Origin: Hydrolagus affinis
Lineage: Eukaryota
Assembly (NCBI GenBank): GCA_012026655.1
Contig: JAAILG010000019.1
Location: 1 to 64,000, forward strand
DNA length: 64,000 bases
Reading direction: 5' to 3'
Positions 5,138-60,352 of this stretch are shown here, piece after piece. Numbering within the stretch: position 1 is the stretch's first letter; the number at the start of each line of letters is the position of its first letter. A program made the translations under genes and the position numbers. The notes beneath the pieces are model-generated. The model was not told where the DNA came from. It ran no database searches and saw nothing but the letters and a program-made list of their open reading frames with translations.

Positions 5138-8100
5138 ATCTCTTTAAGCTGCATTGAACCAGGTTCAATGGATTTAAACATCTTTGGTGAAGATTCATTG
5201 GAATGGGATGAGACTGACATGAGTAATAACCTAATTGGTATCCAAGATGAGCTACCTGACCTTGCATGTGAACAAAATAGCACACCACAATTATCACCTG
5301 AACCTTTGGAAAGTATTGCTGATGAATTCATGCTCGATCGATATAGCAGTGGCCCTGGTGAATCACTGTATAGTCCTGGTGAAGCTCCTTTCTCGTCAGG
5401 TGCACACTTCTATCAAACCTACAATCTGCAGAATGTACAGTTCTATGGAAGAGATCGGATGACATGTTTCAAAAATATCCCAGAACTTCCCACCTCAAAG
5501 TATCCAAACAGTTTAGTCAGGAGTAAAAGTAAAGATTCATCATTCTCATCCACCGACTCGTTACCAGATCTATTAGGGGACTTGACACCAGTCAAAGAAG
5601 ACATACCAACATCACAAGGGCCTTCTGAGAGTGAGAGTGGAATTGTCAGTGAGGGTGATACAGAAACTACAACAAACTCTGAAACCTCTCTTCCAAATCA
5701 AGTTGATGAATCTCAGATTCACAGCACTCCTAAACCTCTGCACCCACTGATAGAGTTAAAACATAAGGATTGTCTGATTAGATCGTGCATTTGTAAAAGA
5801 CAGGGTTCTGTCGAAAAAAAGGAAGGAATGAATTCAACAATAAAACAAAGAACAAAGAATGAAGTTGAATCAACAAAAAATCTTCAGTCACTGTCTATGA
5901 GTAATGAAGGAAATTTACAGCCCCTTGATATTAATAAAATCACTCCAAAGGGTATTTCAAATGATCTAGAGGCACAATATGATGTATTTACATTTTATGA
6001 CTATTCTTATCTGCAGGGCCCTGAGCTTGAGTTAACTATGACTATAACTCACTCACCTGAAGAAAAAGCTACAGATGGCAGTATGTCCTCCAAGCCACAT
6101 TCTGCTGAATATATTTGTAAAAATAAACTAACAGCTCCAGAATCTAAACCAGACTGTAGCAAACCAGAAAGGAGTGCACCAGCGGTATCGGTAGGCAATC
6201 CTAAAACCTATTATAGTAAAGTACCTGATGTCAGAGTATCTCTAGATGTTACAAATGATAAAGAATTTACATTTTTGTCTCAGGGGTCATCAGTGGAATC
6301 ATTCTCCATTGCTGGTGATATATTCCAACTTGGACCCAGCAGCTATAAAAATGAATGTCTTCAACGCAGTGCTTCCTTAGAGAGCTGGACCATTCCATAC
6401 AAAGGCACAGAAGAGTTATTCAGTCATCATGGGTCAGGAGACATCAGTATGGGTAGTGATTCCGTAGGGGAGCTAAGTAAGAGGACATTAGATCTTTTGA
6501 AACGATTAGAAAACATCCAAACTCCAGTAAGTCCGAAAATGAAACGCAGCATTTCTGACATCACACTGCAGAGTAACTCCCAAAAAATGTCGTTCACTGG
6601 CCAGCTGTCACTTGATGCTGCATCATCTGTCAATGAAGATTCTGCTGCTTCCCTGACAGAACTAAGCAGCAGTGAGGAGCTCTCTTTGTGTTCTGAAGAC
6701 ATAGTTGTTCATAAAAATGAAATTTTAGATTCCAATGCATTGTTCAAAAAACATACCAATCACTCAGTGACTGACGAAGCTGATGTCAATATAAGTATGA
6801 TTGTCAACGTGTCCTGTACTTCTGCTTGTACAGATGAAGAAGATGATAGTGATTTGCTTTCCAGTTCAACCCTTACGCTAACTGAAGAAGAACTGCACAT
6901 CAAAGATGATGATGACTCCAGCATTGCCACAGATGATGAGATTACTGAAGAAAGTAATAACATTTTAGACGGAAACTATATGAAAAGTGAATTTCATCAG
7001 TGGCTTAAACCAAACTTTTCTGTCACAAAGGAAAAGAAAAAATTGGATCCAGGTGAAAGAGTTCAGTGCAGGAAAGAGTCAAGTACTGGGTTATCCACTC
7101 TCAAACATATTTCGAGTCTTTATCCATTTTTAAACAATTCTGGACTGATGCTGCCAGAGTGTAAAGAAAAGGCAAAGAGCACCTCACTCTGTCACAGAGA
7201 GAGACATTTTAAACAAACCAGTATGGCCCCTGTGAAACATTTCTGTACTGACAATTTAAGTGATGATGTAGAGAATGGCAATGTGGCAAAATGTCCACTA
7301 AAGAGCAAGAAAGAACTAAGAGTTTTAGACAGCAAAAGATTTTATGAAAAGGAAGAATATACTAGCAAGACCCACAATACAAAATGCTCGAAATTTGAAT
7401 TCTCTAGTCGACCAGGGCAACAAAAAAAAGATATTTCTAACACCTCGTACATTCCAGCCCAGTTTCCCACACAATCTCCACAAAGGAATGAATGTCATGC
7501 ATGTTTTGAAGACAACGGGAGTGTGAAGCAAGTTTTACCTTTGCTTGCTTTTGATTCTGATGATGAGATGATTTTCTCAGGGAAGCCTCTAAAATATGAT
7601 GTTGGTGTGTTAGATGAGAAAATAGCTCCAACATGTGAAAATAAGCGAAAATGCCAACATCACAACACTAGTGCAGAATTACTGTATAATTGCCAAGGTG
7701 ATGAATATATTACCAATGAGGTTTCAGCTGAAAAATCTGATGCTATTTTGTGCTCATCTCATCATAAATGTGAAAATAAACAGTTGGAAGAAGCTAACAA
7801 AGATGATACAAACATGTTTTCAAGTTGTATCTGCCATTCTGATATGCCTCAGACTATCGATGGCGAAGAAGACAGTTCAGTTCACAACTTTGTGATGGAG
7901 ATAATTGATATGGCATCATCAGCACTGAAAAACATCTCACAGCATGACTCTGACATCACCAGCCCAACATCAGTGGCTCAGATTAAGGAAAAAGTGTTAG
8001 AACATTCTCACCGACCTTTGCAGCTACGAAAAGGGGACTTTTATTCTTATTTGTCCATCTCATCACATGACAGTGACTGTGGTGAGGTGAACACTTGTAT

Positions 8101-8899
8101 AGATGAGAAAAGCACCACTCCACTTCCTTTGGATTTCAGTGATGAGTTCAGACCAGATAACAATGCTGAGGACGGAGCCTTTCTTGATGAAGATTTTGAA
8201 GAAAAATTTTCTGATCATCCCTGTGTATTTAGTTTTGCACTTCAAAAAGAGGCAGTTTTAGATAGAACACCATATTCTTTGACCCAACCCGTATCATTTT
8301 CTGACAGGAAAACATTGTCACTGCCAAATGACAGACTGGAAGTAATAGTGCCAAAAGTTATTCATGCAACACCAAATGATCAGAAGATATTGTGTGAAGG
8401 AAATCTAATTAAAACAAACAAAATTAGTCGTAACATAAAAACACTTTTAGGCCTCACTGGTCAAGTAGATCATAAATCTGAAGACAGTATTGTTCCCTCT
8501 CTAGAGTGCCATATTGAGGCTCCATACATAAATCCTTTGCTGCTTGAAAATCAGATGGACAATACTGAGTGTTCATCAGATGATGAATCAATTTTTTCTA
8601 CATGTAAAATTGAAATGCCTGAACCCAACTATAGTCAATCAAATATTGAAGAAACTGAAAACCGTAAGTCAGTGAAACAGCCTCACGAAATGAGAAGTAA
8701 TCTCGTGAAGGACACACAACTAAATGATAGTCATTTTGAAAAAACTGGAGACAATCTGTTTATTAGCACTAAAATCCAATTCCCACAACATGGATATCCT
8801 GAGTATGAAAATTGCGAAGATATGGAATGTGAAATGGAAGACACGCTTTACAAGAAAGAGAAAAATGGCGATTGTGGGTTTGACTTGTCTCAAGAAGAG
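5138..8899 (+). CDS. AKAP6: AKAP6 giant exon (1254 codons): LEWD motif, Ser/acid-rich conserved block, PKA-RII amphipathic helix
   Basis: tttatag|ATC acceptor in frame with ORF 5168..8920; GAG|gtaagt donor after 8899; AKAP6 hallmarks SESESGIVSEGDTE, ELSKRTLDLLKRLENIQ, HNFVMEIIDMASSALK, IKEKVLEHSHRPLQLRKGDFYSYLS. Confidence 0.95.
5198..5209 (+). other. AKAP6: LEWD W-acidic motif (kinesin light-chain-binding type, as in nesprins)
   Basis: ttg gaa tgg gat within EDSLEWDETD. Confidence 0.7.
7880..7933 (+). other. AKAP6: PKA RII-binding amphipathic helix
   Basis: VHNFVMEIIDMASSALKN vs recalled human HNFVKEIIDMASTALKS. Confidence 0.85.
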
Positions 8900-9768
8900 G
8901 TAAGTTATATGATCCATTAGATCCACCATTCAGAAATTGTTATATACTAATTCTCTATTGTGCATCTGTCTTTGCCATAACTAAAATGGAAACAGAAGAA
9001 TTAAAATAGTTATTTTAAATTGGAACCACATCGAAACTTAAATTGGAGAGTGCCTCAAATTAGTCTTTTTCAAACAATGTATTTATTCTCAGTTGTAATT
9101 GTTATAGAATATGAAATGGGATAATATTAATATCTGATGATCTAATGCAAGTCATTTATTCTAAATACCATTTAGTTAAGTATTGCTTTGAAACACAAGC
9201 ATGTTTTGTTTGTCTAAGCAGAATGAATGATTGAATGAAGTTAGCATTTTAATCCCATATTTCATATAAAGACATAGATAGCATGAACCTTTGTAAAAAT
9301 TTAAGATGTCACTTGACAGTTCCTATCTGTTTCTGTCTTTCTTGTTGTCTCTAAGAGCTGGTCATTTCTAGAATTACTCTCTTAATATTGACAAAGTGCA
9401 GATAACATAAAAGTCCACACCTACAAAACAATGACATGACTAAAACAATTCACAATGAATTTAATGGATTAAGATGCTTGACATTTTGTAGGCTATTAAA
9501 AGACTTAACATGGATTAGCAGCATTGTGTATTTAATAAAAAGATTATGGATATTCCCTGTGAATCCTATGATAGTAAGACATTCAAGAGTACGGTCAAAG
9601 AATACTGGTCATGTGTATAAAGAAGATTTACTATGATTGATGGCTTTTATGATGCTGTATAGCTTAACTAAGTGTTATTGAAACTAAGGTTGTGTTTATG
9701 TTTCATTTTTTATTTTGCTATTGGTGGAACCAGAGTAACAAATAATAATACACTTTTCTGATTTGCAG

Positions 9769-9909
9769 ATTCCTAGCTCTTCAAAATTTATAACAGGGAA
9801 ATCCAAGAAAGCTAAGAACAGCAGAACCACTGGTGATAACCTTACCGTTTGTGCTTCCCATCATAGTGAATCTCTGCATGACTCTCATGCTGCAAGATCT
9901 GTGCCCAAG
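9769..9909 (+). CDS. AKAP6: Predicted additional AKAP6 exon (47 aa, IPSSSKFITGK...AARSVPK)
   Basis: cttttctgatttgcag|ATT acceptor, open in phase 0 for 141 nt, AAG|gtatag donor (moderately weak). Confidence 0.6.
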
Positions 9910-10661
9910 GTATAGATGTGAGTTGAACAAACATTCTTTCTAAAAATGTGAATATTCAGTTGATTAAGAAATCCTGCACATTTGTCAGATGAGTTCAACA
10001 TTCTCTAAGGAATCAATGCTCTTTGGAATCAGAAAATGGCTGTATACACAGCCAATTTCACAGTTTTTTCACCATGATTGTAAAAGCCATATCTAAAATG
10101 GCAGTCTACATGGTCGGATGATTGGTTTATAATCTACCCTAGGTAAAACTACATTGTTTATATACAAATTTCCGGAATAGATAGATTAAATAACTAGTAC
10201 TGTAAAAAGATATTACTGGTGATTGGCTTTCTTTTCTGATGCAACTGCCTTAGCATCCCACAGTTTGAAGATAATATGATTTTGGGAAAGGAATGTGCAA
10301 CTCAGCACTCCCAATTCCTCCTTTCCAACAAGCTGCCTTGAAAAACAAGAATGAATTTGTATCTGGTGTAAAACAATAAGCCTTTAGTTGTTGTCACCTT
10401 GCAAAACTGCCAGTGGACAATGGAAATCTATCTCATTATGATCAGTGTGTACACTATTCTGCTTCTGTATTAAGTTTTTTAAAATATATAATTCACAAAT
10501 TCCTTATGAATAGTTGCTCTTTGAATAACTAAGCCAAAATCTATTTAATATATAGAGTAATCTTTATAAATTACTTCCTGTACCGCTTTGTTGCTTTCTG
10601 GATTCATTGCTTACAGCTCTTCTTTTACTTTTATATGTCATGTTTTTTTATATAAATGTAG

Positions 10662-10696
10662 AGGTCAGTAGCAGAAAAGCAAGATCAAAGGCAAAG
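10662..10696 (+). CDS. AKAP6: Predicted 35-nt AKAP6 microexon (RSVAEKQDQRQ+AG), phase 0 to 2
   Basis: T-rich tract, tgtag|AGG...AAAG|gtaact; purine-rich; exit phase matches the phase-2 acceptor at 11566. Confidence 0.55.
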
Positions 10697-11565
10697 GTAA
10701 CTAGCTAGATCCAGATATTTGTGCCTAATTTGGAAGGCGAATACATGCATGTCTGGAGTGCTTCCTAGAAGCTGTAGAAGAGATGTACTTTGCGTTAATC
10801 TCTTCGGCTGTATTCTGACAGTCATTTCTTCATAATCCTCATCACAAGCTCCTGCACTTTGCTGCATGGTTTAATTATCCCAGACTGACTCCTCACTGTG
10901 GAAATCAAACCCTATGGCTGGCCAGATGTTATTGCTTTCTTGCTGCCAGATATAGAAAAAACCTGAAGTTTAACATATAAATATATACAGAGTGGATATG
11001 AAATAAATTAATTTGGAAGTGCCTATAATAAATATATTTGGTCGCTACATTTAGGTCACTTACTTTATAAATAGTTTTAATAACTTCAGGTTTTTATAAT
11101 CATTTGGGGCCCAATGATTGCCGCTTTATGTATCCATTATCACTGGGCTTGCTTCAATCAATGTTGTTTTCATGTTGACATATGTAGCTGAGGGTGTTGT
11201 CTGCATATTGAAGCTCACAGATGAGGATGAATACATGAAGAAAGGTCACACATGACAGTTTACCAACTTCTCTAGTGAAGTTATTATTAAAAATTGATAA
11301 AGGCCTGAACAATAATTCAATACTATTGTAATTTATTTTTCCACACAATTTTACTGTCATTTCTTCTTTCAATATAATGTTTTGGGGCACATGCTTATAA
11401 ATAGCTCAAGTAGTTGTTTACTAGTAATCCTAGAATTCTGCTAAATAATGTAATCCTGTTTTTAAATATTTGTAATATTACCAATATAGAATGCTGACAA
11501 AGTAATGGTTTATTATTCTGTATTGTCCCTGACTACAACATGAATTTGTCTTTCTTTCCCTTCAG

Positions 11566-11845
11566 AAATCTGGCTGTATCCGTGCTCCATTTTTGTCCAC
11601 CTATTCCCAAGGTAGCCTCTAATCTTATTCAGTCATCCTCTTCCTCACTGATATCCAAGTCAAGCTCTTTCCAAATGCGAGTTTTTCATGCAGGTGTGAT
11701 AATCTGGTTGCTTCTGCTGATCCTTTGTATGGCAGTTGCTATAACTCCCTTGTTTGTAATACCATCAGATTGCAGCAAAGTTCGGCTGTTTTCTTCTTCA
11801 TGGACTCCTGTCCTAAGCTACCTCCAAGGACCCCCTCCATTCTGA
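11566..11845 (+). CDS. AKAP6: Terminal exon encoding a KASH domain (TM + luminal PPPF tail), predicted AKAP6 C-terminus
   Basis: tctttctttcccttcag|A acceptor; FQMRVFHAGVIIWLLLLILCMAVAITPLFVIPSDCSKVRLFSSSWTPVLSYLQGPPPF-stop aligns without gaps to recalled nesprin-1 KASH. KASH identity is strong; linkage to AKAP6 is inferred from splice phase. Confidence 0.8.
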
Positions 11846-12692
11846 CTTACAGTTTATTAAATGTCCTGCTTTTTGTGGCAATAGGCATTTTTTGATATCT
11901 AAAGGAATATCATAGCATTTGCATTTACAATACCAAGGTGTAATTTTGTTTCAATTTCTGTAATGGCATTTGATATGAATGCATTTGGAATATATCAGAG
12001 TAATACTTGGAAATTATTGGGGCAATGTGTCAATTTGAAATAAAACAACTTTTATCATGCATACACATGCATATGCAAACAAAAGATATTGGCTGAGTTG
12101 TGTTAACTGTGCTTCATCTGTCAAGCGGAGCCCTGGATTTTATTGGATAATTTACCTTCAATTATTAAAATATGGCAAGTAGCATATTAGTTAAAAGAGA
12201 AATCTGAAGTTTATATTGAGTATCAATTATAATATATTGATAAACATGTAAGCAAAGTTAAAAGAAAACCAACATAGAATTCATAGATCGAATCTATGCA
12301 ATACTGAAACTTTAAAAAAAATTGAACAAATTGTTGTACATTGAAATTATAGGCATTTCATTTGGTTCAGTACCATCATTTTCTTATTTGCTCTTAAAGG
12401 GAAAAAGAAAGAAATGTTTTAACAATGTGTGCCTTGCTGTATTTCTTATACCTTTTGTTAAAAAGCTGCATTTCCCTGAAGTTGGTTTAAAGATATGATA
12501 TAGCAAGGTTAGGCTGTGTGTATAATTTCTGTACATATGTACAAGAAAATGCTAACATTGATGTATATGATATACAATGCTTTCTTGTTTTGTGTTAACT
12601 TGTCCAGTGGTGTAGAAATATTAAGCCTTAAACTGTTAGATTGCATGGGTAAATTAAAGTTGGCAAATAAAAATAATTTATCAGACAATAAA
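11846..12692 (+). terminator. AKAP6: Candidate 3' UTR with polyadenylation signals
   Basis: AATAAA at 12039-12044, 12666-12671 and 12687-12692 downstream of the KASH stop. Confidence 0.45.
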
Positions 12693-17122: not shown

Positions 17123-20100
17123 TGTTAAACTATTAAAATGTTTTCAAAAGTATTGAAAGCCCCCAAAAATCTAATGCACAATTCTTCATAAATTGATTTT
17201 TTTTAAATGCTGTACATTGATAAGAATATATCTCTTAACTGTTCAACATACGGACATTTAGTCTAGTCGAACATGCAATTCATTAAACTACACCCCAGTG
17301 AAACCATCCCATGCTATATTATTTGTAAAATACTGTATAGCACTTTAGTCTGTCCATAGGATGATTCATTCTAATTATTATTTATTCTATATTTGATGAG
17401 ATACATGGGCAAATCATGGGGTGGTAGAACAACCTTGTTCAATATTGAAACACGTTTAAAAGTCAAAGTGCAACATTGAATTAATTTATTCCTGAAACTT
17501 GATGCCACTAACATTAATATTGTGAAGATGGGGACTAAAACTATTAAATAACCATGTGTGGAGTTTTGTTATTTAAAGGAAACGTGTAGTGCAACCCTGG
17601 TCATTTTTGGAGAAGAGTTACAAATCAGAATTACTTACCGAAGCTGTCCTTTATTGTATTACCACACCAACTTTTCATTTTCTATCCCACTTGCTCTGCA
17701 AACAAGAAAACGATGAGAGTTTTATTGGAAGTACAACACTGTAGTGCTGGATCACAATCGCTCTTTGGAGAATATTCAATTACATTCAGAAATACATTGT
17801 ATCGTGGCTACAAACAAGTGTGAAGTACCATTTTCATGCAACTAAAACAATGTAACGAGAACTGCAAATCAGGGATCAGTTTGTACCCGATTATCTTCTG
17901 CCACAAATGAAATAATAAAGAGATAATTCCAAATGGCCTATATTCTCTGAACTTTTGTTTTAATAAAACATGGGGCGCGCAGGATTTTGTGCGTTGGTGT
18001 GAAATGATCATTTCAAATGGGTTCGTTGCTCTATATACGTAACACAAAACTGCGTTGACCCCCCCCCCCCCCCCGCCCCAATATTTCAGTTTTATTATCT
18101 GCATTTCCTTGCTCCCGTCGTTTCGAACCTTTTGAATGCTCTGCTGTCCTGGTTCTGCCAGTGTGTCATTACACAATATTTTGTGTTAATGATTTTAGGC
18201 TCCGTACAACTACAGAAAACGTTATAGTGGAATAAACGGAATGCAACCGATATGCAGTCTCTTTTTAATGCACGATATGAATTGAATAGCCGAAGTAACT
18301 TTTTTGTTACGGGTAGTAAAAGTGATGTTTTTATTCAAAAGACGCATTTTCTCCGCCAGATTCAAACCGGTCTGTCTTATTCCTTGTGTTAATGGAAGTT
18401 CTACGCAAATAATAAATAAGGGAAAACAGGTTTATCGTTCGCCTTTGAACATTAATAAATGTGTTGCAAAATTAATACTGGAGCGCATAATATTCTCTGA
18501 ATTGAATTTAAAAAACTATTCCCAAAGGTGTCACACGTAATTGACTATGTAGTGAAATTATATTTCAGATGGTAGGTTGTTAGATATTAATATTATAGTA
18601 TATTCAGTTACATATTTCCCTTCCGACACAAATATTTACTATTGGAATTAAAATCTGAAGAGCAAAAAGGTAAAAATTAATATTATTTGCAGGCACTCTG
18701 AATTTACGAGAAAAAAAAGACTTCTGCAAAATAAATAAATGGTATTTACAGCTGGCTGTTTGCAGATAAACCAATGTGCAAATTAAGTGCAAGTTACTCA
18801 GCGATATTTTACCGAACTTTCAATACTGTCCTTGGCACTTTATATAAAAGGAATTATTGTTCTTACGAAATGATCTTTCTGGAACAAAAACTTTTTCTGA
18901 TGTATTAAAATGTCCAGTATCCTCAGTGTTGTCCGTGTCCCTCATACACACTCGTGACCCTTTCTGAAACAAATGGAACTCACTCCCCGTTTGATTTGGA
19001 TACTCTCAAACATGGTGATTGGTTTCAAGATGTGCCCTCCCCTCTCCCCTCTCTCCCCCCAAACTGGACCAAGAAACATTCAGCATGCGTGAGAAACAAA
19101 ATACAGCCCATCGTTGAATGGTAAAACAATGCCTTGGCATTTGCCTGATCCCGATTCCTTCCAGCACACATTACTGGGAATACAATCGCACATGAGCCGC
19201 GGACAAATGGGATGTGCAATATATGATGCACAGCAGTCAGTGAGTGAGTGAGTGGGGGGGACGAAGTGACAACCAGCACCAAACTTTGTGGTAACATCAA
19301 TCAAGAACTGGGCACGGGCGCTGCACGCGCCAGATGACACTCCCATGACAGTTACATCTCCAAACCCACAAACCAACCACCTTCTTAAACACCGTTCATC
19401 CGTTCATTCTCTGCAGGATTTTTTTTTACAAAAAATGTTTTACTGCCTGCAAAGCGTGCGAGTAGGGCCGGTTGCAACATTGAGACACGCGCAGAGCAAC
19501 CGTCGCGCACAAAATGCTCGGTTGGAGTTCGGATTTAGACAAGTTGCGATACACCGAGAACTGCTTCATATGGTTTAGAAACCGCTAGTCGGGTTACTTT
19601 AAACCACAAATCAAACAATTCCCCCCCCCCACAACATACACAGGGGGAAAAAAACACGGCGATTCTTCCCATTCATATTTCTGCACTAACCATTGGCCAA
19701 TTAGCTTACGAGAGGTCCGCACTCGTCAGAAAGAAAAGCGTGTTTGTTGTTGAAAGTGTTTATAAGGCGGCTCCCACAGGTGGCCACATGAACGCCGCCA
19801 GCCACAAAAGCAAACCAGTCCTCGGTTCCTTTTATTTTAAAACCAACGAGGACAAGTCGAGGCAGCCAAGACCGGGTGTCTAAAACAAGTTCTTTAATAT
19901 ATAATAAATACCCCGAGCAATGGAGCCGTTTGTTTTCTTCTTCAAAAAAAAATACAATCCCCTTTCAGGTCACTATTTTCCTTTCTCATTTATATACAGC
20001 AAAGAGAGAGAGAGACTGGTGTGTGTGTTACACACCCGAGGGTATGACAGAGGAGACACCGGTCTTGACCCGGGACCAGAAATTAAAAACACATTTACCC

Positions 20101-20654
20101 TGAAGTCAACCAAATAGAGTATTAGCACCCCCCACATATGCATACACACACATATACACACACACACAACGTAGCTCAATATTATACCTTGCCTACTTTG
20201 GGGTAGTAGAGCGGCCGATTTAAGGTTCAGTGCTTTTGAAATTCTGTATGGCAAAGGGTCCTCAAAATGAAGGAAGAGGCGAGGGAGGGAAACAACATTT
20301 TTTGCAGGTTTAATTTAAAAAAATAAAGGCTTTCTTTGCACGCGCGCTCGTCCAATAAAAATACGCCTGATTGGGCGTGATTGGGCGTAAAACAGCCCAA
20401 CTCTTCAACTCTTTCTCTGTTCTTCGCCCCCCCTCCTCCACCCTCCGCCCCATTCAAAAAAAACGTTCGGATCCCAACGGTCGAGAAAGTCGTGCGCGTG
20501 CACGTCGTGACGTATCCACACCCCCACGCGCGCGCGCACATACACACACACATACTCACACGTGAGGCGCGAGGTGGCGGAGCTGAGCATCACGATTGGC
20601 CGCCAAAGCGCCGGGCGCCAGAATTGCTATTAAGCGTCAACGAACCGGCAGCGA

Positions 20655-20689
20655 GCTGTACCTCGAGCTCGTCAGCTTCCAGTCCCAGG
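20655..20689 (+). other. NPAS3: Candidate short non-coding first exon of NPAS3
   Basis: Starts about 25-30 nt after tattaa (start approximate); strong donor AGG|gtaagt after 20689. Confidence 0.4.
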
Positions 20690-21019
20690 GTAAGTTGGGG
20701 AGGGGGGTGGGGGGGCTTCACTTTCTCCGGCCAAATTGCAGCAAGTTTGAAAACCGTCTTCCAATCCTTTTTCCTTCTTCACCGGATCGACATGTCGTTT
20801 TCCACCGTTTAAGCTGCGTAAATCACAGTTATCGAATAGACATACCTCTCTCGTTCTCTCTCTCTCCATATATATATAAAAAGAAAATAAAGGGAAGCCC
20901 ACCCTCACGGAGTGGAAGTTATCACTAATGGGATTGAAGTTTAACTTGATACTCAAGAGAAAACCGCAGTTCACTAAGACGCAACCGTGGAGCTGGCCAT
21001 TGGAAATCCTAGCGCGGGG

Positions 21020-21106
21020 ATGATCAGGATTTTCCCGGATTTCAGTGTGCAAGTAACGGCAGCAACTGGTGGAGGAGGCGCCGCGGTTACTGCTGCACCT
21101 GGAGTG
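21020..21106 (+). CDS. NPAS3: NPAS3 upstream alternative first coding exon (MIRIFPDFSVQVTAATGGGG...), truncated by the assembly gap
   Basis: Peptide matches the recalled N-terminus of long predicted vertebrate NPAS3 isoforms (MIRIFPDFSVQVTAA...); 3' end falls in the N-run. Confidence 0.7.
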
Positions 21107-21206
21107 NNNNNNNNNNNNNNNNNNNNNNNNNNNNNNNNNNNNNNNNNNNNNNNNNNNNNNNNNNNNNNNNNNNNNNNNNNNNNNNNNNNNNNNNNNNNNN
21201 NNNNNN
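21107..21206. other. Assembly gap (100 N)
   Basis: Run of 100 n. Confidence 1.
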
Positions 21207-23749
21207 CACACACACACACACCCCCCCCCTCAATATTTATAGCAATATGTGGCATCTGGTTTTCCAAACACACTTTTTTTTATTTTATATTCATTTGCGT
21301 GGCGCAATGGGTTTTGGTTGAATTGGTACCAATTGCCACATGTTACCAATGATAAGTTATGCACGAAAGTTAATTTTGAAATATTACTACCAACATGTGG
21401 CAAAAACGCGTTGAACATTCTTGCAACTTGTCTCAGCAGCTTGGGAAGAAATGTTAAATATTTGACAAAAACTCTCCTATTAATAGGGGGGGGGGGAGCT
21501 TTAAATATACCAGAATGCAGGAAGGGAAGATGATAAGCAAACATGTAGGCAGATGCGCTAAGCAAAACGCTCCTTAACTCAAGGCCCAGTTCTTATAACC
21601 CAAATAATTTTATCCGCTCCTTGTGATCCATTAGTTTTAATAAAACAGAAATCTTGATGAAACTCATTGACTGTTTATTTCTGCGTCAACTGTGCTTGCT
21701 ATAAGCAGTATCCGTGTGGTATCTGCCAAATTCGAATCTAAAGATCAAAGTTATTTATATACGTGTATTTTGGGATATGAAAAAAAATCATTTTTGCAGT
21801 GTTGCTATTTTCGGGTGGGGGGGTGGGGGGGGGGAGATGATTGCTTTTAAACGGTGCTACTTCAAATCTCTTACTAGGCAGGACTAAGCTAAATGTTTCT
21901 TTTCCTTAAACAGGTTCTTTTGAAATGCAACTGTTTCTTTGCTATGTAGTGTACAAAAGCAATGTTATACTTAAAATAACATAAACAAATTAATCAGTTT
22001 TGTAAACTAACCACGGGCAAATATGTAGCCATTAATGTATTGAAATAAAATATAAACAATGAAAGATGTAAACAATAAAACTATGTAGATAACGGTCTCA
22101 AAATATGAAATGCCTAACCAGGATAGTGGGATTTGAAGACTAATAAGTTCTTCTGCACTCAAAAGTGAGATGATTTTAGATATTTCCACGATTTGTGGAT
22201 AGAGTATTTAATATACTTTTACAAATCGAAACTATTCAACATTTTTGAGAATGGTAATTAGCACTTAGTTATGCAAGTAACAGCGGCTGCATCGTCAACA
22301 GTCATGATTAACTAAATCTAGGTTTCTAACAATTCACGTATTGCTTGTTTAAAAACAAGTTCAAATGGCAAGAGAGACAGGAACAACGATGTTATGTGGT
22401 TACGAGACCGACTGAACAAAATTAGTATCTCCACTGTAATTCTTTTAAATCAACACATTGTAGAGTACAATAATTATAACCTAGAGATTACTTTTAGGAG
22501 GAGTAAGGGCTCTAAAATAGTCTCGAGTGCCATTTCGGCAACGCATAGGAAACAATCACAATATGAATGGAAATTTTTCGCATTTTATGGAGCTAGATTA
22601 TTGTGATTTGTAACTAACGCAAACAATATGATATTTCATTACATAGTTCTCGATTTTTTTTAAATGAAGAGAAAGTTACCAAAATGAATATTAGTGCGTA
22701 TAATTGACAAATTCTTAACATTTATTGTGCAAGCATAATTTGCCCAGCAAAATATGAGGCTCTTGCGCTAGAACAAATACTTTATCGCAACGTAGTGTTG
22801 CAATGAGTACCATACCAATCCAAATAAGTTACTACACTTTTCAAATTTGGGTCCAGATGTTATGTTTCTTATATGCAATGAAAAACAATCCTGTTTTTGA
22901 ATCGAAAGAAAAATACATGACATTGTCTACTATTTTTGTATACTTTTTTTTAAAAAAGTCTAGCATTTTTCCAACTCTCAGACCAGGTATCAGCTGAATA
23001 ACCTGTTACTTCATGGCCAAGGATTTGTCATGTTTGTCTGCAATTTAGTTTTGGACATCGCCAAATGCCCATCTATGGTTTTGCAGCAATGAGTTTTAAT
23101 TAGATTGCCACATTTTGTATAATCGCACGTGATTGGAAAACTGCACTTCAAAGTACCTGTCACACTTTAAATCAAAATGAAACGTCCTCGTTTTGCGCGA
23201 GTGACTGTAACATTTAGGTGACACACTTATTGAAACACGCTTCACTTTTATTGATGGAGTTTCAAGTTGATTGCTTGCAGAATATTTTGCCAAAACATTC
23301 AAAGGAAGTTACAAAACACGGAACATCTTTAGATGAATATTTCATAAAACATGTAATTGCTACTGTGATCCGCAGGACACCATTCATCCTGTGGTATCTG
23401 GCTTGCGGATGCTTTAGTAAATCATTGACGAAAGGAAATCTAGATTTTAATAATAATCACAGCAATCATTTTGCCAGGAAATATGTTTTTAAGGAAACCC
23501 TACAATAATTACTGGGACATATGCCAGGAGGCTTGGGTGACATTTACAAACTGAATAGGGTTTACATTAGACCAAACCACACAGCATTTTCTTTCTAAAT
23601 AAGATCATTTGTGTTTTGAATGTCACCTATCTCTTTAACGTTATGCAATAAAGTCGAAGCTTTTAAATCCGGTTATTTAGATCCCATCTGTAATGTGGTA
23701 TTATATCAAATCTCAGCTATTCTTCATAAAGTGAATAAAATAACAACTG

Positions 23750-29574: not shown

Positions 29575-30655
29575 GTTACAATACAAAATTACATTTGTAT
29601 AGCGGCTTTCACATCAGGAGGGCCTCCCAAGGCACTGTACAGTCAGGGATTTGGACCTGGGTGGGAGGTTTGGGGTAAGGGCGGTGGGAGGGTGGCCAAA
29701 GGCACAGTTGGAAAGGAGGATGTTAAGATGTGCTTTGAAGGAGGTAAGGGAGGAGGGAGCGAGGAGAAGGGAATGTGGGATTAAGATGGGGAGGGCAGGC
29801 GATGTGCAGCAGGCTGGAGACTACTGTGTGGAGGGAGCAGACTGATTGATAAGGGGTTACCAGATCACAGAGGTAGGAATGGGCTGTGGAGGACCTTGAG
29901 GATTTTGAACTGTATGCTCTGAGGGATGGAGAGCCAGTGGAGTCTGGCATAGATGGGGCAGATTGGGTCACAGAGCCTGGTGCAGGAGAAAACACAAGCT
30001 TCAGAGATCTGGATGATCTGTAGCTTGTGGAGGGAAGAGTTGGGAAGGCCAATAAGCAGGGAGTTGGCATAATCAAGCCTAGATATGATGAATGAGGATT
30101 TTGGTGGCCTGAATGGGTGAGACAGTGTTGCAGAGATGGGGAAGTACAGAGTAGGTCATGGCATGGATGATGGATGCGGAGGTATTTGAGGGGTAAACAA
30201 GATGCCCAGGTTCCTGATTGGCTCAGTGAGGTGGAGTTGGCATCCATGGATCATGATGCTGCCAGTGCCTGAGGTGTGGAGGTGCTGACGAAATCCCATC
30301 AGGATGGTCTTGTTGGCGCTCAACTGAAGAAATTTAGCTCTTGTCGAAGACTTGATATCTGAAAGACATTCTGTTAGGACAGCAGTGGTCCTGGAGTTGA
30401 GGGTAGAGGCAGAGAGATAGAGTTGGGTGTCATCTGCGTACATGTGGAAGTTGACCTCATGTCTGCAGGTGATATGACCAAGTACAGAGCCCTGAGGAAT
30501 ACCGCATGAGACAGTGTGGGTGCTGGAGGGGAAATTGTTTGTGGAGACAAAGTGAAGTAGGTATGAAGGGTAAGATCTGAACCATTCAATGACAGAACCG
30601 TGAAGGTTGATGTCAGAGGAGAGGCGATGGAGGAGGATAGAGTGGTCAACTGTAC
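29575..30655 (-). mobile_element. 5'-truncated L2 LINE with reverse-transcriptase remnant
   Basis: ORF 30156..30707(-) has TVDHSILLHRL, GIPQGSVLG and MYADDTQLYLS; frameshifted; 3' tail near 29575-29640. Confidence 0.9.
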
Positions 30656-31829
30656 AAGTTAGTTTGTGACCTTGTGCTCCAAGTATAGCCGTTACACTTA
30701 ACAGCAATTACCTGCAAAACACTTTGAGATGTTTTGATGTTATTGATGCTGAATCAATTTCAAGAATTTTTAAAGTTTACAATGATGGAGGAATCTAATT
30801 GTAGGCCATTATTCCTGTAGTGTTTACAAATACTGGGAAATATGTTTAAATTTGGCACTTTTAGGGAAACGAGATGGAGCCTTGACATGTTTCTCCTATC
30901 AATCCTCATATTAACTATTGGGTAGACAGGATATAACCATAATATTTTCAAATACAAATAGATGTATAATATTGTTCTGTAATGTTACTGCAACCTTTTT
31001 AAATTGACAAAAGGTTTATATTAATGAAAATGAATATCTAATTTTAAAAAGCTGTGTTAAAGCTTTGGTGAACATCAAAGGTCTCATAATTTACAGTCCT
31101 TGATGCTCTTAGTAAAATGTGAAATGGGTGAAGCGAAAAGGTAAGGGAACAAAAATCAACACAATATTGTGGTTTAATAAACTTGAAGAAAAAGCAAGGG
31201 GCCAGGAGATCAATACTTTACCTCCAGAACTAATAATGAACTTACTATGTTTTGTTCTAAGTAACAATTATAATATTATAACATTATAATAATGTTCCAA
31301 CTCTGCTTTTTCTTAATGATGCTTTGCTTGTATATTCTCTTGGTTTACACAGATTTTTTTTTCTTTCCCCTGTGACCTTGAGCAATTCCATCTGCAGTAA
31401 TCGGAAAGAAAATAATTTATTGAATGAATGGAAGAAAGATTAGGCCTACTGAACTCAAAGTGGTTCCAATCAGTGTACATTTTTATTAACGTCAGATAGA
31501 TTTTGGGCTTCTCCTTAAAGGTGAAAGTAATTTTCCAAGTTTGGGAAAGTGAAAAAATGCTTCCTGTTGAAAGTGATCACCTCTATGTTAGGTACAAAAA
31601 TGAACATTTAGTGCAGCCTCGGGTTCCAAGTCCTAAGATGCTTGGCGCTCTGGTGGCAAATATTATGGGGAAGAGTTAGGTGCATGGTTGAGTTACTCCA
31701 TCCAGTTTGTATTGAGCTGACCTAAACTGACTTAGGAATTTAGCTGGAGTCACCCAATACATAGTGAGGACAATCATGGCAAGTACAAGTGCTATACGAT
31801 CCCGAGTTATCTCACCCAAACTATATATG

Positions 31830-32340
31830 TAAACAGCAAGTTGAATTTATATAGAGCCCTTTGTGCGAGTAGGGTCTTGGAGCACTTGATGGCATAGCTT
31901 GACATTGAGTTGTAAAGGGGGGAAGGGTAAGTGATGGAGGAGTGATAGTAGAGGAAGGTGTTCAGGTGTGATCTGAAGACGGCTAAAAAAGGCAAGATGG
32001 AAGGATTGAAGCAAGGAGTTCGAATGGCTGAAAGTCCTGCTGCGAGTTGTGGAACTGCGGGGACAAGGGATGTGCTGAAGGCTTAAGTCAGTTGAGAGAA
32101 GGATGTGGATAAAGGAGTGGGTGATGAGCAGATTGGAGATTAGGGAGGTGCTAGGGCACGCAGAAATTTGAAAGAGATTGAAGATTATAAACTCAATCAA
32201 TTTTGCAATAACTGGCAAAAAAAACTGGGGTGATGTGGGTATGGGGATTACTATGGGTTTGATTATGGGCAGAGTTGGACCAATTTGGTTCAGAGTTTTG
32301 AATCATTTGGACCTTATTAATGGTGAGGAGACCAGTGATG
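31830..32340 (-). mobile_element. Older L2 3' fragment
   Basis: Tail atttatatagagccctt..cttggagcactt and purine-rich body similar to the 29575 copy. Confidence 0.55.
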
Positions 32341-59594: not shown

Positions 59595-60352
59595 TAGGTG
59601 TGTAAGACGGAAGCCATACTCTTTGGCTTCCATCGACGTCTTCTGTCCCATGGTTCCGACCTCCTCAACCTACCTGACCTGTCCTTAAAATTCTCCAAAA
59701 CTGTGCACAACTTAGGTGTCAGGTTTGATCCCCAGTTATCCTTCCCCGATATCCGGCCCATTACCAGAACCACTTTCTTCCATCTCCACCACGTTGCAAG
59801 TCTCCGGCAGTAATTCACCCCAACAGCTGCCAAAACCCTGGTCCATGCCTTTGTCACCTCTCACCCTCCTCGCTGGTCACCCCCACTCCACCATCCACAA
59901 AATTCAGCTCATACAAAACTCCACCATCTGCACTAAGCTTCTTACCCTGATTACCCCAGTCCTTGTCAAACTGCACTGGCTCCCTGTCACAGAGCAGATC
60001 GATTTCAAGATCCTCACTCTTGTATTTAAATCTTTCCGCTCCTTTGCACCCTGTTACCTCACTTAACCTCCTCTCCCCTCACTGCAGGGGCCTGCCTCTG
60101 CTCTACTGGGTCCAACCTCCTCCTTGTCTCCGGAGACCTCCCCTTCACCATCAGCAGCCGTGCTTTGAGCCACAACGCCAAGAAATTTTGGAACTCCTGC
60201 TCTCAACCCCCTCCTTTCCCATCTTCAGGTTGCGCATGAACACGTTTCTCTTCGGCCATGCTTATGGTTACCTTCCCCCTCCCACTTGCTCGGCCTCGGG
60301 CAGTTCGCTCTTCACCTGGTGTGAAGAGCTCTATATAAAGTTTTGTTGTTGA
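59595..60352 (+). mobile_element. L2 LINE 3' fragment
   Basis: KTEAILFG..VHNLGVRFDPQLSF and ITPVLVKLHWLPV..IDFKILTLVFK; tail ctctatataaagttttgttgttg. Confidence 0.88.

Follow-up and report, generated by a model that had tools for sequence, protein, structure and literature searches.

A predicted KASH-domain ending of AKAP6 in the chimaera Hydrolagus affinis and its proposed control by a microexon and two alternative splice donors

The 3′ end of AKAP6

The window analysed here, the whole of a 64,000-nucleotide stretch of Hydrolagus affinis DNA (contig JAAILG010000019.1), contains the 3′ end of holocephalan AKAP6, and its start falls within the gene. The open reading frame at 5138–8917 is 92% identical to Callorhinchus milii AKAP6 (XP_007891570) and 55–68% identical to the proteins of 14 sharks and rays, and annotated AKAP6 proteins provide both the best and the full-length similarity, which identifies the locus as an AKAP6 orthologue. 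The stretch 9700–10000 has a single match in its own genome. The exons that follow the big coding exon are laid out in Table 1, and every coordinate quoted in the initial annotation of this DNA agreed with the sequence when checked letter for letter. Donor strength is given throughout as the number of matches to the nine-position consensus; the donor of the big exon, GAG/GTAAGT at 8899/8900, matches at 8 of the 9. AATAAA motifs at 12039, 12666 and 12687, beyond the region aligned to RNA, are candidate signals for the gene's usual 3′ end.

Table 1. Features at the 3′ end of AKAP6, in window coordinates (X9 and X1–X3 are the sequencing runs described below)
Feature	Position	Strand	Evidence and remarks
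Big AKAP6 coding exon, 3762 nt	5138..8899	+	Strong phase-0 donor at end; 92% identity to C. milii; acceptor context; junction 8899–9769 in 4 of 4 runs
Read-through of big-exon donor, VSYMIH then stop (TAG 8918–8920)	8900..8920	+	Sequence only; unsupported as an isoform
Hexamers ATTAAA at 9000 and 9495, AATAAA at 9534	9000..9539	+	Background level; no depth step after them
Coding exon of 141 nt, donor A AAG/GTATAG, phase 0	9769..9909	+	Acceptor at 9768; open frame; donor A joined to the last exon by 8 X9 reads
8-nt extension to donor B GAT/GTGAGT	9910..9917	+	In-frame TAG 9913–9915; protein ends in PKV; 15 X9 reads
Intron, often retained or read into, which likewise stops the protein at PKV	9918..10661	+	X9 depth; X2 and X3 contigs
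Microexon, 35 nt, phase 0 to phase 2	10662..10696	+	Sole candidate of the scan; 5 X9 reads in, 6 out; X3 contigs
Two TGCATG motifs, RBFOX-type	10746..10868	+	At 10746 and 10863, downstream of microexon; candidate inclusion enhancers
Last exon, coding part	11566..11845	+	KASH frame 11567–11842, stop 11843–11845; loose ends at 9909, 9917 and 10696 match this acceptor
Last exon, shifted frame	11566..11622	+	Hydrophilic tail of 18 residues and stop when donor A skips the microexon
KASH domain	11675..11842	+	Transmembrane helix ~11699–11761, luminal tail of 27 residues, PPPF end; Pfam PF10541

The KASH domain of the last exon

In one of its frames the last exon encodes a C-terminus that matches the Pfam KASH profile (PF10541) with an E-value of 4.3e-10 and 40.2 bits, against a cut-off of 23. 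The best 21-residue stretch has a hydropathy of 2.92, and the topology is predicted to be a single helix with a luminal tail that stays within the limit of about 30 residues. KASH peptides of nesprin-1 and nesprin-2 share a register of Tyr at −7, Pro at −11 and Cys at −23 from the end. The AKAP6 tail has the PPPX type of terminus and the same register, with Tyr at −7, Leu at −9, Pro at −11 and Cys at −23, and an ungapped, weak alignment to nesprin-1/2 peptides of known structure (PDB 4dxs_B, E 0.41; 6r15_B, E 1.3) agrees with it. Judged by its sequence, the long form of AKAP6 is a KASH protein, resembling the mammalian members of this group in its C-terminal transmembrane helix and short luminal tail and nesprin-1 and nesprin-2 in its spacing.

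Six mammalian KASH proteins are recognised, nesprin-1 to nesprin-4, KASH5 and JAW1/LRMP, and AKAP6 is not one of them; the article that names them contains the term “AKAP” nowhere (PMC10827754). The name “KASH6” in the literature refers to JAW1/LRMP and not to AKAP6. No report of a KASH-bearing AKAP6 was found in the openly accessible literature searched, and the accessible portions of three further articles added nothing on AKAP6 as a KASH protein (PMC9471154, PMC4284225, PMC11853192). The isoforms themselves are already present, unremarked, in the automatic annotation of RefSeq and Pfam, and their splicing logic is a trick known from the nesprins.

Reading-frame logic of the two donors and the microexon

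Access to the KASH frame is set by phase. The last-exon acceptor at 11566 is strong and requires two carried-over bases; donor A carries none, so joining the two directly misses the KASH frame and meets a stop after 18 residues. When 9940–11560 was scanned for internal exons, a single candidate passed, the microexon at 10662–10696, which restores the KASH frame and agrees with the public KASH models. The initial annotation had overlooked this exon. Among the eight paths in our frame table two give KASH, and both contain the microexon and bypass donor B: one runs from donor A through the microexon, and the other, a path not seen in RNA, joins 8899 to the microexon with the 141-nt exon skipped. 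Donor A without the microexon yields the 18-residue KASH-less tail, and donor B, with or without the microexon, yields the PKV-stop, as does run-on into the intron. The microexon is required for KASH. Phase-0 acceptors at 11612, 11633 and 11660, within the last exon, were considered as a direct route from 9909 into KASH and ruled out, as 11566 was the site matched by every loose end listed.

Donor A matches the consensus at 5 of 9 positions, and a GT(A/G)AG motif within 10 nt of a donor is expected by chance at about 1.4%. Given this low chance frequency, and given that both donors are used in RNA, we regard the pair as a real switch. It is not the switch that was first described. The initial annotation had proposed a two-state toggle, with donor A keeping the frame toward KASH and donor B stopping the protein; there are indeed two donors, both in use, and 9917 does stop the protein, but 9909 alone does not keep the KASH frame, and all eight listed reads from it joined the last exon out of frame.

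The lengths of the extension and the microexon, 8 and 35 nt, both leave 2 modulo 3, so that donor B lies in the KASH frame save for its TAG. Donor B joined to the last exon could for that reason be a hidden KASH route that needs no microexon, the TAG being read through or removed by A-to-I editing. The TAG also sits within a predicted 9-bp hairpin at 9897–9917, which spans donor A as well (−8.9 kcal/mol, pair probabilities 0.87–1.0). Such a frame match is, however, expected one time in three by chance, Narcine has lost the stop and the frame together, and an equally closed structure occurs at 18 of 300 random GT sites, so that the hairpin is not significant; we find this route scarcely credible. 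The context of the TAG at 9913–9915 is not known to favour read-through. The same hairpin was considered as a means of hiding donor A and rejected, since donor B is equally hard to open and comparable scores come from 20 of 300 shuffles as well as from the random GT sites; it is a weak lead, a model prediction that is not significant against its controls. The residues encoded by 9897–9917 are the best-kept part of the 141-nt exon.

Downstream of the microexon, the two TGCATG motifs begin 50 and 167 nt past its end. Two or more such motifs occur in 2 of 319 tiles of 200 nt (Poisson P 0.005, a post hoc value). A downstream GCAUG usually boosts exon inclusion, according to the available part of PMC11874969. 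A third TGCATG lies within the 141-nt exon, at 9875–9880.

Splice choice in RNA

Four of 11 listed sequencing runs were aligned to 8000–10790. Run X9 consists of stranded poly(A) raw reads from one sample, about 27% of which was read; it gave 801 aligned reads. We take its source to be the same species or a close relative, because 581 of these reads are at least 99% alike, with a few fixed differences from the window. X1–X3 are contigs, which we guess to be RNA, from a relative with about 93% similarity; rare variants are dropped in them, and they show presence, not absence. Junctions were reported only with at least three reads. Because the alignment ended at 10790, joins to the last exon were recognised by loose ends that agree with its opening 30 letters (one differs).

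Expression of the 141-nt exon, on which the initial annotation had depended, is established by 32 joint reads and 8 loose ends from the big exon in X9, together with contigs in X1–X3. Both of its donors are used. Of the 23 X9 reads listed from them, eight run from donor A to the last exon, ten from donor B to the last exon and five from donor B to the microexon; the donor B share is thus 15 of 23 (95% interval 0.43–0.84), a figure based on small counts. A further six reads join the microexon (10696) to the last exon. In the contigs, X1 and X2 connect 9917 to the last exon and X3 connects 9917 to the microexon, and only donor B appears, with no join at 9909 listed. The earlier proposal that KASH-less forms arise by splice choice is therefore borne out by reads from both donors: all 23 listed X9 reads drop KASH in the manner of nesprin delta-KASH splicing, as do the X1–X3 contigs.

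The junction that would make KASH, 9909–10662, stayed below the three-read threshold in all four runs. With none of the 23 listed X9 reads on the KASH path, the upper bound on its share is 0.15, or 0.26 if two unlisted reads exist. KASH-less messages dominate in the RNA checked, and it is the public gene models and conservation that argue for the existence of a KASH-coding transcript.

Read-through of the big-exon donor

The initial annotation had also described a second way of losing KASH, in which reading through the donor at 8900, followed by polyadenylation at 9000 or 9534, yields a KASH-less protein. The sequence permits read-through and a stop exactly as described, and in one Mustelus model the big exon is followed by a short tail of another kind. 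Stops make up 7.3% of the intronic triplets in the window, however, and one within 7 codons of read-through has a probability of 0.41; both hexamers are present in 20 of 59 tiles of 869 nt elsewhere in the window. As the stop and the hexamers occur at chance frequency, we consider this arrangement ordinary. The donor it would have to ignore is strong, and the read-through peptide is not the same in the skate and sturgeon open reading frames.

The RNA points the same way. In X9 the depth across the intron 8900–9768 is 1.4–4.2 and flat across the hexamers, about 5% of the 42–74 in the exon, with neither a pile of 3′ ends nor a drop in depth. None of the four runs shows raised depth that then falls or ends in a pile, and the X1–X3 contigs cover the distal part of this intron and are absent right after the donor. 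An intronic polyadenylation isoform at this site is unsupported in these four runs and highly improbable.

The intron after the 141-nt exon

The following intron, 9918–10661, behaves differently. Over the initial 375 nt X9 depth is 22–27, or 45% of that in the exon; it keeps to this range up to 10349 and is down to about 10 by 10631. An X2 contig extends through to 10696, and an X3 contig joins sequence like 10120–10142 (matched by eye) to the microexon, which suggests a further donor near 10142 in the relative; a message spliced there would likewise end at PKV. The run-on depth in X9 may be retained intron or unspliced precursor.

This profile, in a poly(A) library, could also be produced if the main KASH-less product came from an alternative 3′ end in 9918–10661, as in nesprin-2 delta-KASH2, and not from splice choice. 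An ATTAAA at 10185 and variant hexamers at 10483–10651 would be available to such an end. Yet no site with many molecule ends is listed, the intron contains no AATAAA, the X2 contig continues past it, and the 23 spliced reads mean that splicing makes at least as many KASH-less messages; we judge this origin unlikely. Intronic polyadenylation, if any exists, lies in this intron rather than in 8900–9768.

Endings of AKAP6 in cartilaginous fishes

We classed the ends of AKAP6 models in 23 cartilaginous-fish species, which are automatic models from related species and not independent of one another, setting aside fragments or partial rows (P0131, P0140, P0141 and P0145) and open reading frames (P0169–P0173). 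The frameshift tail is found in 18 species, the PKV-stop in 15, KASH in 9 and another end in 2, and all three main ends occur together in 6 of the 23. The peptide of the 141-nt exon is identical at 42 of 47 positions in C. milii and 47–62% identical in eight sharks and rays. Where a KASH model exists, in eight sharks and rays, identity to the window is 82–91% for the microexon and 75–89% for KASH, against 39–62% for the two preceding exons, and 9 or 10 of the 11 microexon residues are kept in all nine KASH models. Since the microexon and KASH are better conserved than the exons that flank them, we infer that the anchored form, although rare, is under selection.

Some lineages end the protein in other ways. 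In Narcine bancroftii (P0181–P0184) the 141-nt exon carries a 9-nt, three-residue extension that leads into the shifted frame of the last exon, which reads as a site like donor B that has no stop and still gives no KASH. Three skates (P0011, P0013, P0167, P0168, P0179) have models that lack the 141-nt exon and pass from the big exon to the last exon in the shifted frame. Of 9 rays and skates 1 has a KASH model, and of 5 carpet sharks none has. The one ray example, from Hemitrygon (P0165), scores 23.1 bits, just above the cut-off of 23, and its helix contains an Arg. The small number of KASH models in rays and carpet sharks may reflect decay of the anchor or a gap in annotation.

These comparisons bear on whether there is a switch at all. 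The splice sites may simply be weak and leaky, producing a fixed mix of ends in which KASH-less forms are tolerated noise; the poor match of donor A to the consensus fits this, and the roughly 45% run-on and the further donor near 10142 look sloppy. On the other side, 15 of 23 species (related, not independent) share a stop at the second codon past donor A when about 7% of intronic triplets are stops, the Narcine extension has changed and the product is nevertheless KASH-less, and two TGCATG motifs lie downstream of the microexon. Unregulated leakiness is a somewhat unlikely account of these data.

A probable splice gate for a membrane anchor

We think it likely that the 3′ end of AKAP6 is a conserved splice gate, in which KASH is in frame only in messages that contain the 35-nt microexon and bypass the stop-carrying donor at 9917. 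The KASH-less product dominates in the RNA checked; the anchored form is likely a minor one, and probably regulated by tissue. The anchor would then be a switchable option that is mostly off, with the RBFOX-type sites possibly increasing microexon inclusion in some tissues. Under the 50–55-nt rule of nonsense-mediated decay, the three spliced KASH-less messages should be spared, with stops that are either 2 or 37 nt upstream of the final junction or within the last exon. Retention of the intron or use of the donor at 10142 puts the stop 781 or 262 nt before the last junction, and these messages would be targets of decay. The KASH form is predicted to enter the outer nuclear membrane, with SUN proteins as its binding partners, and the KASH-less forms might reach the envelope indirectly through nesprin-1alpha, by analogy with mammals.

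The KASH-less forms had initially been called soluble, a term that is doubtful. Mammalian AKAP6 (mAKAP) is the orthologous scaffold; it is equally without a membrane anchor, and it is still held at the nuclear envelope, through binding of its SR3 region to nesprin-1alpha, according to the accessible portions of the articles concerned (PMC13632692, PMC7725499). It differs from the chimaera gene in having no KASH, in ending inside the big exon and in lacking the residues of the 141-nt exon.

The comparison with KASH-less nesprins holds up better. In the nesprin-1 delta-KASH form, as described in the available part of Rajgor et al. (2012, PMC3388047), cassette exon 145 is skipped and the frame of the last exon shifts. 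The AKAP6 event is alike in that skipping of the next-to-last exon shifts the last-exon frame, keeps the 3′UTR and gives a short new tail without an anchor (PMC3388047). It differs from what that text describes in the gene concerned, in having a 35-nt cassette upstream of the entire KASH domain, and in a second gate in series, the stop-carrying donor 8 nt away, with KASH-less messages in the majority in the RNA checked. The KASH-less nesprin-1 protein moves off the envelope, as the same text reports (PMC3388047). Two KASH-less routes in one gene, a frameshift and a truncation without a new tail, have a parallel in nesprin-2 delta-KASH1 and delta-KASH2, forms that the accessible text describes as tissue-restricted in human (PMC3388047, PMC3981789). 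While nesprin-2 truncates there through an alternative 3′UTR beside exon 115, AKAP6 does so through a shifted donor, an intronic 3′ end being only possible.

Lamprey, bony vertebrates and amniotes

A search with the last exon among 1.84 billion representatives returned four hits. The best is lamprey LOC144943219 (P0231), and the other three are fragments that by eye have nesprin-type ends. The lamprey protein matches AKAP6 in three blocks and carries a KASH profile match (PF10541, E 6.9e-7). The same gene has KASH-less models, and the tail of one fits the shifted frame over 22 residues (maximum in shuffles 11). A separate search for KASH-bearing AKAP6 gave four hits among 179 candidates, all cartilaginous. 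Taken together, the KASH domain of AKAP6 in cartilaginous fishes and that of a lamprey relative point to a KASH-bearing gene in the ancestral vertebrate.

Bony fishes gave no KASH-bearing AKAP6 in either search, among the 179 candidates or the 1.84 billion representatives, both being weak negatives. Among the best 120 of 338 matches, none of 105 full-length bony-vertebrate proteins has a C-terminal hydrophobic helix, and 103 of the 105 terminate in MHR or MRR. Among the shorter rows, many of them partial, 1 of 107 (of 120) passed the hydropathy cut, and it lacks a KASH ending. A Pfam scan of human AKAP6 detects no KASH.

The initial annotation had presented the KASH-less forms as mammal-like and the two switches as a simple route to the loss of KASH in mammals. 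Measured from a shared point in an alignment, the inferred end of the big exon is 42 residues further on in chimaera, coelacanth, sturgeon and teleost, and the amniote stop 20 residues further on. As the amniote stop falls about 22 codons inside the big exon, ahead of its donor and without all downstream sequence, neither switch is the mammalian route, and neither places its stop at the amniote position. Coelacanth and teleost models continue beyond the donor and have no KASH, which suggests, from a weak negative, that the membrane anchor was lost before the amniote truncation.

A broader reading can be offered tentatively, as a possibility somewhat short of probable. In the ancestor of vertebrates AKAP6 may have been a LINC-complex KASH protein, the product of a seventh KASH gene that lamprey and cartilaginous fishes have retained. 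Its anchor would be controlled by a two-step gate that is off by default and opened in particular tissues by RBFOX-type inclusion of the microexon. Loss in one step, perhaps separately in carpet sharks, most rays and bony vertebrates, would have left the protein to ride on nesprin-1alpha. AKAP6 is studied as a signalling hub in heart hypertrophy and as an adaptor that builds the microtubule centre of the nuclear envelope, and the accessible text of a review has it always held at the envelope by nesprin-1alpha (PMC13632692). If AKAP6 does carry a SUN-binding anchor switched by splicing, the mammalian arrangement would be a derived one, and cartilaginous fishes would keep both states in one gene, offering a natural experiment on what a kinase scaffold gains from direct LINC coupling. 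It would also provide a concrete one-exon path to the loss of a membrane anchor, where loss of the microexon removes the anchor in a single step.

The remainder of the window

Beyond AKAP6, the region at about 19000–21600 is richer in GC, contains simple repeats and a gap of 100 N, and possibly holds the promoter of the gene that follows, presumably NPAS3, which we take to be the neighbour of AKAP6. Broken open frames at about 29700–32300 (minus strand) and at 59700–60350 resemble, by eye, fragments of LINE reverse transcriptase.
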